A stretch of DNA of 64,000 nt from Escherichia coli. Its GTDB lineage: Bacteria > Pseudomonadota > Gammaproteobacteria > Enterobacterales > Enterobacteriaceae. The notes beneath the pieces are model-generated. The model was not told the origin of the DNA. It searched no databases and saw only the letters and a list, made by a program, of their open reading frames with translations. The translations under genes and the position numbers were made by a program. Location of the stretch: assembly GCF_045037415.1 (NCBI RefSeq), contig NZ_CP173438.1. One strand, given 5' to 3'. Within the stretch, counting starts at the first letter, position 1. The number at the start of each line of letters is the position of its first letter. Below are positions 13,581 to 17,665 of this stretch, piece by piece.

Positions 13581-14162
13581 ATGGCGGTTCAAAAGAATGT
13601 TATCAAAGGCATACTGGCAGGTACGTTTGCGCTAATGCTGAGCGGTTGTGTTACTGTGCCGGACGCCATTAAAGGCAGTAGTCCCACGCCGCAACAAGAT
13701 TTAGTTCGGGTGATGAGTGCGCCGCAGCTGTACGTTGGTCAGGAGGCTCGCTTTGGCGGCAAAGTGGTTGCTGTACAAAACCAGCAAGGGAAAACCCGCC
13801 TGGAAATTGCCACCGTACCACTGGACAGCGGAGCCAGACCGACGCTGGGAGAACCTTCTCGCGGTCGCATTTATGCCGATGTGAACGGTTTTCTGGACCC
13901 GGTGGATTTCCGCGGACAACTGGTGACGGTAGTCGGGCCAATCACCGGTGCGGTTGACGGCAAAATCGGTAATACGCCCTATAAATTTATGGTGATGCAA
14001 GTAACGGGTTACAAACGTTGGCATTTAACCCAGCAGGTGATTATGCCGCCTCAGCCGATTGAACCATGGTTTTATGGCGGTCGTGGCTGGCCCTATGGCT
14101 ACGGCGGATGGGGCTGGTATAATCCCGGCCCCGCGAGAGTACAAACAGTTGTAACTGAATAA
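13581..14162 (+). CDS. yeaY: Slp-family outer-membrane lipoprotein
   Basis: 193-aa ORF with lipoprotein signal [23 protein letters not shown] (lipobox LSGC); recognised as YeaY. Confidence 0.92.
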
Positions 14163-14183
14163 TTGCTTGTTTTTAAAGAAAAA

Positions 14184-14295
14184 GAAACAGCGGCCGGTCC
14201 GCTGTTTCTGCATTCTTACGGTAAAGATAAAAATAAATAGTGACGCGCTTCGCAACCTTTTCCTTGGGTAATTATCAAGCTGGTAAGATGAGTTA
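14184..14295 (+). promoter_or_regulatory. fadD promoter region with two FadR-operator-like sites (GGCCGGTCCGCTGTTTC at 14192-14208; AGCTGGTAAGATGAGTT at 14278-14294)
   Basis: Both match the FadR operator pattern (CTGGT..GA....TT) and lie within 200 bp upstream of fadD; the upstream site is part of an inverted repeat GAAACAGCGG-CCGGT-CCGCTGTTTC (14184-14208) that could also terminate yeaY. Confidence 0.45.
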
Positions 14296-14366
14296 ATATT
14301 ATGTTAATAGCATGTTTATCACTTGGGGTTGCGATGACGACGAACACGCATTTTAGAGGTGAAGAA

Positions 14367-16052
14367 TTGAAGAAGGTTTGGCTTAACCGTTATCCCGCGG
14401 ACGTTCCGACGGAGATCAACCCTGACCGTTATCAATCTCTGGTAGATATGTTTGAGCAGTCGGTCGCACGCTATGCCGATCAACCCGCGTTTGTGAATAT
14501 GGGGGAGGTGATGACCTTCCGCAAACTGGAAGAACGCAGTCGCGCGTTTGCCGCTTATTTGCAACAAGGGTTGGGGCTGAAGAAAGGCGATCGCGTTGCG
14601 TTGATGATGCCTAACTTATTGCAATATCCGGTGGCGCTGTTTGGCATTTTGCGTGCCGGGATGATCGTCGTAAACGTTAACCCGTTGTATACCCCGCGTG
14701 AGCTTGAGCATCAGCTTAACGATAGCGGCGCATCGGCGATTGTTATCGTGTCTAACTTTGCCCACACTCTGGAAAAAGTGGTTGATAAAACCGCCGTTCA
14801 GCACGTTATTCTGACCCGTATGGGCGATCAGCTATCTACGGCAAAAGGCACGGTAGTCAATTTCGTTGTTAAATACATCAAGCGTCTGGTGCCGAAATAC
14901 CATCTGCCAGATGCCATTTCATTTCGTAGCGCCCTGCACAACGGCTACCGGATGCAGTACGTCAAACCAGAATTGGTGCCGGAAGATTTAGCTTTCCTGC
15001 AATACACCGGCGGCACCACTGGTGTGGCGAAAGGCGCGATGCTGACTCACCGCAATATGCTGGCGAACCTGGAACAGGTTAACGCGACCTATGGTCCGCT
15101 GTTGCATCCGGGCAAAGAGCTGGTGGTGACGGCGCTGCCGCTGTATCACATTTTTGCACTGACCATTAACTGCCTGCTGTTTATCGAACTGGGAGGGCAG
15201 AACCTGCTTATCACTAACCCGCGCGATATTCCAGGGCTGGTAAAAGAGTTAGCGAAATATCCGTTTACCGCTATCACTGGCGTTAACACCTTGTTCAATG
15301 CGTTGCTGAACAATAAAGAGTTCCAGCAGCTGGATTTCTCCAGTCTGCATCTTTCCGCAGGCGGTGGGATGCCTGTTCAGCAAGTGGTTGCAGAACGTTG
15401 GGTTAAACTGACTGGACAGTATCTGCTGGAAGGTTATGGCCTGACCGAGTGCGCGCCGCTGGTCAGCGTTAACCCGTATGATATTGATTATCATAGTGGT
15501 AGCATCGGTTTGCCGGTGCCGTCGACGGAAGCCAAACTGGTGGATGATGATGATAATGAAGTACCACCTGGTCAACCAGGTGAGCTTTGTGTCAAAGGAC
15601 CGCAGGTGATGCTGGGTTACTGGCAGCGTCCGGATGCTACCGATGAAATCATCAAAAATGGCTGGTTACACACCGGCGACATCGCGGTGATGGATGAAGA
15701 AGGATTCCTGCGCATTGTCGATCGTAAAAAAGATATGATTCTGGTTTCCGGTTTTAACGTCTATCCCAACGAGATTGAAGATGTCGTCATGCAGCATCCT
15801 GGCGTACAGGAAGTCGCGGCTGTTGGCGTACCTTCCGGCTCCAGTGGTGAAGCGGTGAAAATCTTCGTAGTGAAAAAAGATCCATCGCTTACCGAAGAGT
15901 CACTGGTGACCTTTTGCCGCCGTCAGCTCACGGGCTACAAAGTACCGAAGCTGGTGGAGTTTCGTGATGAGTTACCGAAATCTAACGTCGGAAAAATTTT
16001 GCGACGAGAATTACGTGACGAAGCGCGCGGCAAAGTGGACAATAAAGCCTGA
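14367..16052 (+). CDS. fadD: long-chain-fatty-acid--CoA ligase
   Basis: ORF 14301-16052; K-12-length product (561 aa) starts at TTG 14367 ([24 protein letters not shown]...) after AGAGGTGAAG; AMP-binding signature [14 protein letters not shown]. Confidence 0.95.
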
Positions 16053-16071
16053 GCGTTAAGTCAGTCGTCAG

Positions 16072-16097
16072 ACGCCGGTTAATCCGGCGTTTTTTTT
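16072..16097 (+). terminator. rho-independent terminator of fadD
   Basis: ACGCCGG-TTAAT-CCGGCGT stem-loop followed by TTTTTTTT, 20 bp after the fadD stop. Confidence 0.7.
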
Positions 16098-16121
16098 GAC
16101 GCCCACTAAAGAGAATACAAT

Positions 16122-17249
16122 TTGAATTACCAAATGATTACCACGGACGATGCGCTGGCTTCTTTGTGTGAAGCCGTCCGTGCCTTTCCGGCGATAGCCC
16201 TGGATACTGAATTTGTTCGTACGCGCACTTATTACCCGCAGCTGGGTTTAATTCAACTTTTTGATGGTGAGCATCTGGCGCTAATCGATCCACTCGGGAT
16301 CACCGACTGGTCACCGCTGAAAGCGATCCTGCGCGATCCGTCCATCACAAAATTTCTCCATGCAGGCAGTGAAGATCTGGAAGTGTTCCTCAATGTCTTT
16401 GGCGAATTACCACAACCCTTGATTGACACGCAAATCCTTGCTGCCTTCTGCGGACGCCCGATGTCATGGGGTTTCGCTTCCATGGTGGAAGAGTATTCCG
16501 GCGTTACGCTGGACAAGAGTGAATCGCGCACCGACTGGCTGGCCAGACCGCTGACCGAACGTCAGTGTGAATACGCAGCGGCGGATGTCTGGTATCTGTT
16601 ACCGATCACCGCAAAGCTTATGGTAGAAACGGAGGCCTCCGGCTGGCTACCTGCGGCGCTGGATGAATGCCGCCTGATGCAAATGCGTCGTCAGGAAGTC
16701 GTTGCGCCGGAAGACGCCTGGCGTGATATCACCAATGCCTGGCAGTTACGCACACGCCAACTGGCCTGTCTGCAACTGTTAGCCGACTGGCGATTGCGCA
16801 AGGCGCGAGAGCGCGATCTGGCGGTGAACTTTGTCGTGCGTGAAGAGCATTTGTGGTCGGTAGCGCGTTATATGCCGGGAAGTCTGGGCGAACTGGACAG
16901 CCTGGGCTTATCCGGTAGCGAAATCCGCTTCCACGGTAAAACGTTGCTGGCGCTGGTGGAAAAAGCGCAGGCATTGCCGGAAGAGGCCTTACCGCAGCCG
17001 ATGCTTAACCTGATGGACATGCCGGGTTATCGTAAAGCGTTTAAAGCGATTAAGTCGCTGATTACTGACGTCAGCGAAACGCACAAGATCAGCGCCGAAT
17101 TGCTGGCATCGCGTCGGCAAATCAACCAACTGCTGAACTGGCACTGGAAACTGAAACCGCAGAACAATTTGCCGGAGCTGATTTCCGGCTGGCGTGGTGA
17201 GCTGATGGCGGAAGCATTACACAATTTATTGCAGGAATATCCACAGTAA
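16122..17249 (+). CDS. rnd: ribonuclease D
   Basis: 375-aa ORF beginning at TTG (rnd is known to use a UUG start); MNYQMITTDDALASLCEAVRAFPAIALDTEFVRTRTYYPQLGLIQLF... Confidence 0.95.
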   Translation: MNYQMITTDDALASLCEAVRAFPAIALDTEFVRTRTYYPQLGLIQLFDGEHLALIDPLGITDWSPLKAILRDPSITKFLHAGSEDLEVFLNVFGELPQPLIDTQILAAFCGRPMSWGFASMVEEYSGVTLDKSESRTDWLARPLTERQCEYAAADVWYLLPITAKLMVETEASGWLPAALDECRLMQMRRQEVVAPEDAWRDITNAWQLRTRQLACLQLLADWRLRKARERDLAVNFVVREEHLWSVARYMPGSLGELDSLGLSGSEIRFHGKTLLALVEKAQALPEEALPQPMLNLMDMPGYRKAFKAIKSLITDVSETHKISAELLASRRQINQLLNWHWKLKPQNNLPELISGWRGELMAEALHNLLQEYPQ

Positions 17250-17332: not shown

Positions 17333-17665
17333 TTGAGCTTAACGCCAAATGCGCTCGACACCACGACGAGTAAATACCGATTCCTGAATGACGACTTCAT
17401 TCTCTGTTCCTTCATTCACTCTACCGCCTGGCGAGGAATATTCGCCTTCGGTGTTTTTCCGGACCACGTAAAAATCGATGTCGCCAGGCTGTTTCCCGCC
17501 AGTGGTCATTTAGTACAAGTGCTACCGGAATATTACCAGCCAGCGAATGTCTGGGCCGTTTATGTTTCAAAGCTGTCGACGTCAGCGAAAGTGCGGATAA
17601 CGGTAGAATTTTTACGCCAGTATTTTGCCGAGCACTACCCGAATTTTTCACTGGAGCATGCCTGA
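17333..17665 (+). pseudogene. 3'-terminal fragment of a LysR-family regulator gene (dmlR/yeaT-like remnant)
   Basis: 110-codon ORF whose C-terminal two-thirds ([60 protein letters not shown]) has the layout of a LysR effector-domain C-terminus; frame closed by TGA at 17324-17326; no N-terminal HTH domain; sits where K-12 has dmlR upstream of leuE. Confidence 0.4.

Follow-up and report, generated by a model that had tools for sequence, protein, structure and literature searches.

Two neighbouring genes of Escherichia coli, fadD (long-chain-fatty-acid--CoA ligase) and rnd (RNase D), both seem to begin at the codon TTG, and the question that this locus raises is whether the two codons are genuine initiators and, if so, whether their standing side by side has a common cause. 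The DNA that we studied, hereafter the window, is a stretch of 64,000 nucleotides (nt) of contig NZ_CP173438.1 (assembly GCF_045037415.1), in which fadD (14367..16052) and rnd (16122..17249) are consecutive genes of the + strand, on which the features described below also lie unless another strand is given. A preliminary description of the window had pointed to the two TTG codons; the observation is correct at these positions, and both genes are TTG-initiated in the window. In our view fadD and rnd are, with high probability, two separate and well-characterised genes, each truly initiated at UUG.

Over its 64 kb the window has two mismatches to strain SK1144 (NZ_AP018784.2). A 2.1-kb stretch around the two starts, which 5425 of 5426 complete E. 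coli genomes contain, matches many chromosomes of the species at 100% identity, and positions 14101-16300 show 48 substitutions and no insertion or deletion relative to K-12 MG1655. For the comparison between species, one genome per species was searched with a single degenerate DNA pattern that represents the RNase D motif DTEFVRTRTYYP. At least 120 loci were returned, belonging to Enterobacterales, Vibrio, Aeromonas and a few Alteromonadales; all locus counts given below are among the matches listed. The start codon could be evaluated in 116 loci for rnd and in 79 for fadD, and the tallies of the rnd leader and of in-frame ATG codons refer to the 96 loci having TTG or GTG at the rnd start position. 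The strength of a Shine-Dalgarno (SD) sequence is expressed as the computed energy of its duplex with the 3' end of 16S rRNA.

The translation starts of fadD and rnd

As the preliminary description stated, the fadD frame stays open upstream as far as an ATG at 14301, from which a product of 583 residues would be read; a second in-frame ATG, at 14334, on which that description is silent, gives 572 residues and TTG 14367 gives 561. The SD sequence AGAGGTGA (14355..14362), separated from the TTG by a 4-nt spacer, is the strongest of the three candidates, with a duplex energy of -7.1 kcal/mol against -5.4 for ATG 14334 and -2.8 for ATG 14301, and it is kept in relatives as AGAGGTGA or CAGGAGT. The length of the TTG-started product is also that of K-12 MG1655 fadD (b1805, annotated at 1686 nt), so that the claim of a K-12-length protein behind a good SD sequence holds, and the RefSeq/PGAP annotation of SK1144 calls fadD from TTG too. 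The N-terminus of FadD was reportedly sequenced by Black et al. in 1992, and this is said to be the origin of the TTG start in the EcoGene verified set. Published protein sequencing favours the TTG over the upstream in-frame codons: fadD (EG11530) encodes one of the 862 proteins in the EcoGene set whose N-termini were sequenced, and the predictor evaluated in the same paper missed the true fadD start in favour of ATG 14334, 11 codons before it, which was counted as a false positive (PMC1805508). Recent N-terminomics supplements contain no FadD peptide.

The start codon of fadD is conserved as a weak one. At the homologous position TTG is found in 56, GTG in 20 and ATG in 1 of the 79 loci. No in-frame start-type codon (ATG, GTG or TTG) separates the upstream stop from the fadD TTG or GTG in Yersinia, Photorhabdus, Xenorhabdus and Vibrio, and several loci of the last three genera have that stop a mere 5-6 codons before the start; in these four genera TTG or GTG is therefore the sole possible start. 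Moreover, the entropy over 42 distinct sequences is 0.16 bit at the first base of the start codon, compared with an average of about 1.2 bit at the third positions of the next 14 codons, which means that the weak fadD codon has been kept while neutral sites are saturated.

The rnd frame opens directly at TTG 16122, as had been described: it is the first ATG, GTG or TTG following an in-frame TAA. The product read from it has 375 residues and begins MNYQMITTDD; a weak SD-like AAGAG (16109..16113) stands 8 nt before the codon, with a duplex energy of -2.9 kcal/mol. K-12 MG1655 rnd (b1804) is annotated at 1128 nt, the TTG-started length, and the crystallised RNase D (PDB chain 1YT3_A) has 375 residues and begins MNYQM. 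The N-terminal peptide to be expected of the TTG-started enzyme is (f)MNYQMITTDDALASLCEAVR. That a UUG start is known for rnd is borne out by a review (PMC7769764), which, citing Zhang and Deutscher 1992, describes the rnd mRNA as having UUG as an alternative initiator together with a translational enhancer.

The current annotation of SK1144 reads the gene differently. RefSeq/PGAP starts rnd at an in-frame ATG (16134..16136), the codon of Met5 of RNase D, and obtains a protein of 371 residues (WP_001296131.1), which would make TTG 16122 merely an upstream in-frame codon. ATG is the stronger initiator, and the 371-residue form is found on at least 1000 contigs, as against 639 for the form of 375 residues. 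However, ATG 16134 lacks an SD sequence (+0.4 kcal/mol versus -2.9 at TTG 16122), and its conservation is poor: at the equivalent position ATG is found in 42 of the 96 loci and a codon for Leu, Ile or Tyr in the other 54, while the TTG or GTG and the Asn-Tyr-Gln that follows it are kept. At the homologous start itself TTG occurs in 79, GTG in 18 and ATG in 2 of the 116 loci. In addition, 37 of the 96 loci have no in-frame ATG at all from the upstream stop to the catalytic Asp28 of the DEDD motif, and a non-ATG start is thus obligatory there for an intact RNase D. Together with the length used by K-12 curation and 1YT3 and with the UUG start of the literature, these data make initiation at ATG 16134 extremely improbable, and the PGAP start is most likely a mis-call, four codons short.

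A purine-rich, SD-like motif is found between -18 and -5 of the rnd start in 89 of the 96 loci. Changing the rnd UUG to AUG is said, from the work of Zhang and Deutscher, to raise RNase D expression. The more general claim that UUG limits translation is consistent with reporter measurements, in which it was six- to eight-fold below AUG or GUG (PMC3592434, a paper that cites Zhang and Deutscher 1989).

Public annotation of the two proteins is inconsistent. FadD is found as proteins of 561, 572 and 583 residues, each on at least 1000 contigs, and RNase D in the 371- and 375-residue forms already mentioned. Sequence comparison supports 561 residues as the correct length for FadD and 375 for RNase D, and in thousands of E. 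coli genomes the RNase D of RefSeq/PGAP, with its 371 residues, probably lacks the first four. The comparative data alone settle both gene starts, without experiments.

The fadD leader and the segment between the genes

The region upstream of fadD contains two operators for FadR. Site 2 (14192..14208) matches the fadD-FadR-site2 probe of PMC3460868 and overlaps the terminator hairpin of yeaY, which the terminator scan places at 14183-14209 and which is formed in part by this operator; site 1, AGCTGGTAAGATGAGTT (14278..14294), was read from the sequence and is kept as aaCTGGTacgcTGAGTT across Enterobacterales in the alignment. By our count the two sites are separated by 69 bp, a distance given as 68 bp in PMC3460868. 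The published transcription start of fadD is A 14307, and the hexamer just upstream of it, TAATAT (14295-14300), is conserved in relatives as TAATAT or TAAAAT and is the likely -10 element. A simple sigma-70 promoter scan missed this known promoter, so the -10 element was assigned from the published start site and from its conservation. Relative to K-12, position 14195 in site 2 is C instead of T (CCGGTC here, CTGGTC in K-12), position 14286 changes GGTATGA of site 1 into GGTAAGA, and the early fadD leader has further single-base variants.

The position of the transcription start separates the two upstream ATG codons of fadD. ATG 14301 is placed between the -10 hexamer and A 14307 and is consequently outside the fadD mRNA; lying upstream of the published transcription start and having no SD sequence, it was rejected as a start. 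Since transcription begins at 14307, ATG 14334 (14334..14336) is inside the mRNA, in the 5' untranslated region, 11 codons before the TTG. It belongs to a block (14325-14336) composed of GGGG or GAGG, 5 nt and ATG, with GGGG in the window, which is placed exactly 33 nt from the TTG with the frame open. Every one of the 43 loci evaluated in Enterobacteriaceae, Erwiniaceae and Pectobacteriaceae has the block, as does one Serratia, and these 12 nt (-42 to -31) are far more conserved than the surrounding leader, which varies.

Such conservation could reflect a second start, used in these three families alongside the TTG, from which ATG 14334 might give a minor FadD form of 572 residues or might modulate ribosome loading at the TTG. 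The codon is a strong one within the mRNA and has a moderate SD sequence (-5.4 kcal/mol), its spacing and frame are constant, fadD is among the candidate multi-start genes of PMC1805508, and gene callers often pick the 572-residue start (on at least 1000 contigs, as stated above). Conserved RNA structure does not explain the block: folding of the alignment found none there (alifold, -2 kcal/mol), and the single-sequence folding of the fadD leader was no better than that of shuffled sequences (z = +1.1), so that structure was rejected as the cause. A CRP half-site in the block, inspected by eye, was rejected as well because the second half-site is mismatched. Against a second start, the EcoGene protein sequencing, the sole protein data, puts the N-terminus of FadD at the TTG, and the 11-residue extension is poorly conserved, with entropies at the three codon phases of 0.95/0.85/1.24 compared with 0.21/0.08/1.20 in the coding sequence. 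The ATG is also missing in Yersinia, Rahnella, Rouxiella, Photorhabdus, Xenorhabdus, Providencia, Edwardsiella, Budvicia, Vibrio and Aeromonas and, apart from the one Serratia, is absent outside the three families. The block might, rather, serve to bind a protein or a small RNA. On balance we regard a dual start of fadD as unlikely, and TTG 14367 as the start of the gene.

Between the two genes lies the small RNA SroD (16011..16096), which is placed at the 3' end of fadD in the literature and comprises the last 42 nt of fadD and a terminator hairpin; it is recognised by the Rfam model RF00370 over its entire length (1-86 of 86) with 115.2 bits against a gathering score of 50 (E = 5e-24). The terminator of fadD and SroD (16070..16097), found by the terminator scan, is a G+C-rich hairpin, AGACGCCGG-TTAAT-CCGGCGTTT (16070-16092), followed by eight T (16090-16097), and the 35-nt stretch that contains the hairpin (16066-16100) folds at -16.2 kcal/mol with z = -4.5. 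The same element is located in the rnd leader. In 61 of the 96 loci five or more consecutive T occur within 60 nt before rnd, and in PMC7769764 the hairpin and U-tract upstream of the rnd SD sequence are described, after Zhang and Deutscher 1992, as the translational enhancer; the U-run is reported from that work to be required for 30S binding and translation. SroD is thus relevant to rnd, as its terminator hairpin and U-tract fall in the rnd leader.

Immediately downstream of rnd the window has only fragments of two genes, one for a tartrate dehydrogenase (17342-17497, minus strand) and one for a LysR regulator (17498-17665), after which comes leuE. In K-12 the neighbours of rnd are instead yeaX, yeaW and yeaV, for carnitine monooxygenase and a putative transporter, and judging from the sequence the 17342-17665 region looks like the result of a deletion or rearrangement relative to K-12.

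Adjacency of the two TTG starts

The preliminary description had called two adjacent UUG-initiated genes uncommon. According to the PGAP starts, the 65 complete coding sequences of the window comprise 53 ATG, 11 GTG and 1 TTG starts, the GTG-started genes being manX, sdaA, nudL, yoaA, leuE, dgcP, mipA, ydjF, a SIMPL-domain gene, ynjH and ynjF. When rnd is counted at its K-12 curated start, two of the 65 annotated genes are TTG-started, and the probability that two such genes among 65 are adjacent is 64/2080, about 3%. TTG makes up about 3% of the starts in the K-12 annotation. It accounts for 1.9% of 858 N-terminally verified genes (PMC1805508) and for 10 of 688 starts in one N-terminomics set. 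If TTG is taken as 1.5-3% of the starts of about 4300 genes, we estimate that roughly 1-4 adjacent TTG pairs arise by chance. The word uncommon therefore needs qualifying: such a pair is rare for any given two genes, and at least one is expected somewhere in a genome by chance.

Might the two TTG codons nevertheless form a coordinated regulatory pair, tuned together through UUG initiation by the level of IF3, by polyamines or by growth phase? The combination is well kept: both starts are TTG in 47 loci belonging to 22 named genera of Enterobacterales, and in Vibrio both are GTG. However, the two codons change independently, with fadD/rnd states of TTG/GTG in 5 loci, GTG/TTG in 3 and GTG/ATG in Aeromonas, and no co-variation of the two was seen across the taxa, only independent changes. 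An intrinsic terminator parts fadD from rnd, their initiation regions differ (a strong SD sequence for fadD; a weak one with a U-tract for rnd), their functions are unrelated, and an adjacent pair is expected by chance in any case. We consider coordinated tuning of the pair very improbable, and the evidence points to no shared mechanism linking the two codons.

Wherever both starts could be placed, fadD is upstream of rnd on the same strand, with the starts 1703-1982 nt apart. The two TTG codons adjoin because both the gene order and the two start codons are conserved, and the adjacency is most simply explained by conserved synteny together with two independently conserved start codons.

Some loci show other states. 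In Acerihabitans arboris fadD has ATG, and the apparent start of rnd is a GTG one codon upstream; at two Xenorhabdus loci the codon in the rnd start position is not a start codon; and in Ca. Pantoea persica stop codons occur in the N-terminal region of rnd, which may be a pseudogene.

Expression of the two genes and comparison with known systems

Two separate genes, each with its own UUG start, can be placed in the following scheme. fadD is transcribed from A 14307, from a promoter controlled by FadR, CRP and ArcA, and translated from UUG 14367, where the strong SD sequence probably compensates for the weak codon. One and the same hairpin ends both the fadD transcript and SroD. rnd is translated from UUG 16122, which has just the weak AAGAG before it, and its translation, according to published work, relies on the U-rich tract that follows the upstream hairpin. 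In each gene the weak start codon probably helps to set a low or moderate rate of translation, possibly under selection for low expression, and purifying selection has probably preserved each of them from a time before the divergence of the Enterobacterales; the Vibrio and Aeromonas relatives have GTG starts, or ATG for rnd in Aeromonas.

Three observations weigh against this interpretation. ATG has been gained at the rnd start several times (in Aeromonas, Edwardsiella, Shimwellia, one Pantoea and one Vibrio), which implies that the weak start is dispensable. The conserved in-frame ATG 14334, with its moderate SD sequence, makes a minor longer form of FadD possible. Finally, the accessible parts of TRAINSPOTTER (N-terminomics of E. 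coli), of a riboproteogenomic study of Salmonella and of a Ribo-RET preprint hold no initiation data for fadD or rnd.

Both UUG starts and the enhancer in the rnd leader have been known for K-12 for decades, and the finding is real and ordinary; it restates K-12 facts and has little biological consequence. What is added here is minor, namely the conservation across species, the discrepancy of the PGAP start of rnd and the conserved ATG in the fadD leader. Since both weak starts are retained across an entire order, the locus is a clean case, taken from nature, of non-AUG initiators under purifying selection.

Retention of a weak initiator in a conserved gene is likewise seen in other E. coli genes in which a non-AUG start serves the control of expression, namely infC (AUU), cdsA (TTG) and the UUG- or GUG-started genes of the polyamine modulon. 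For cdsA, alternative in-frame starts have led to ambiguity of annotation, according to PMC11448367. The likeness of these systems to fadD and rnd, which are not known to be autoregulated or to depend on polyamines, lies in the start codon and in the ambiguity of annotation.

The closest comparison is with K-12 itself. For fadD, the segment 14323-14467, which contains ATG 14334, the SD sequence and the TTG, is identical in the two genomes, and the product has 561 residues in both; the differences are single-base variants of the window at 14195 and 14286, one in each FadR operator, and others in the early leader. SroD (RF00370) is matched here in full length, over the 3' end of fadD and the terminator. 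The rnd initiation region studied in K-12 by Zhang and Deutscher from 1988 to 1992 has the same hairpin, T8, AAGAG and TTG and differs at one base (16116), and the RNase D encoded here differs from the crystallised 1YT3 at two residues. Relative to rnd of K-12, therefore, nothing of substance is different, and the additions are the conservation of its start across species and the recognition that the PGAP start lies four codons downstream of it.

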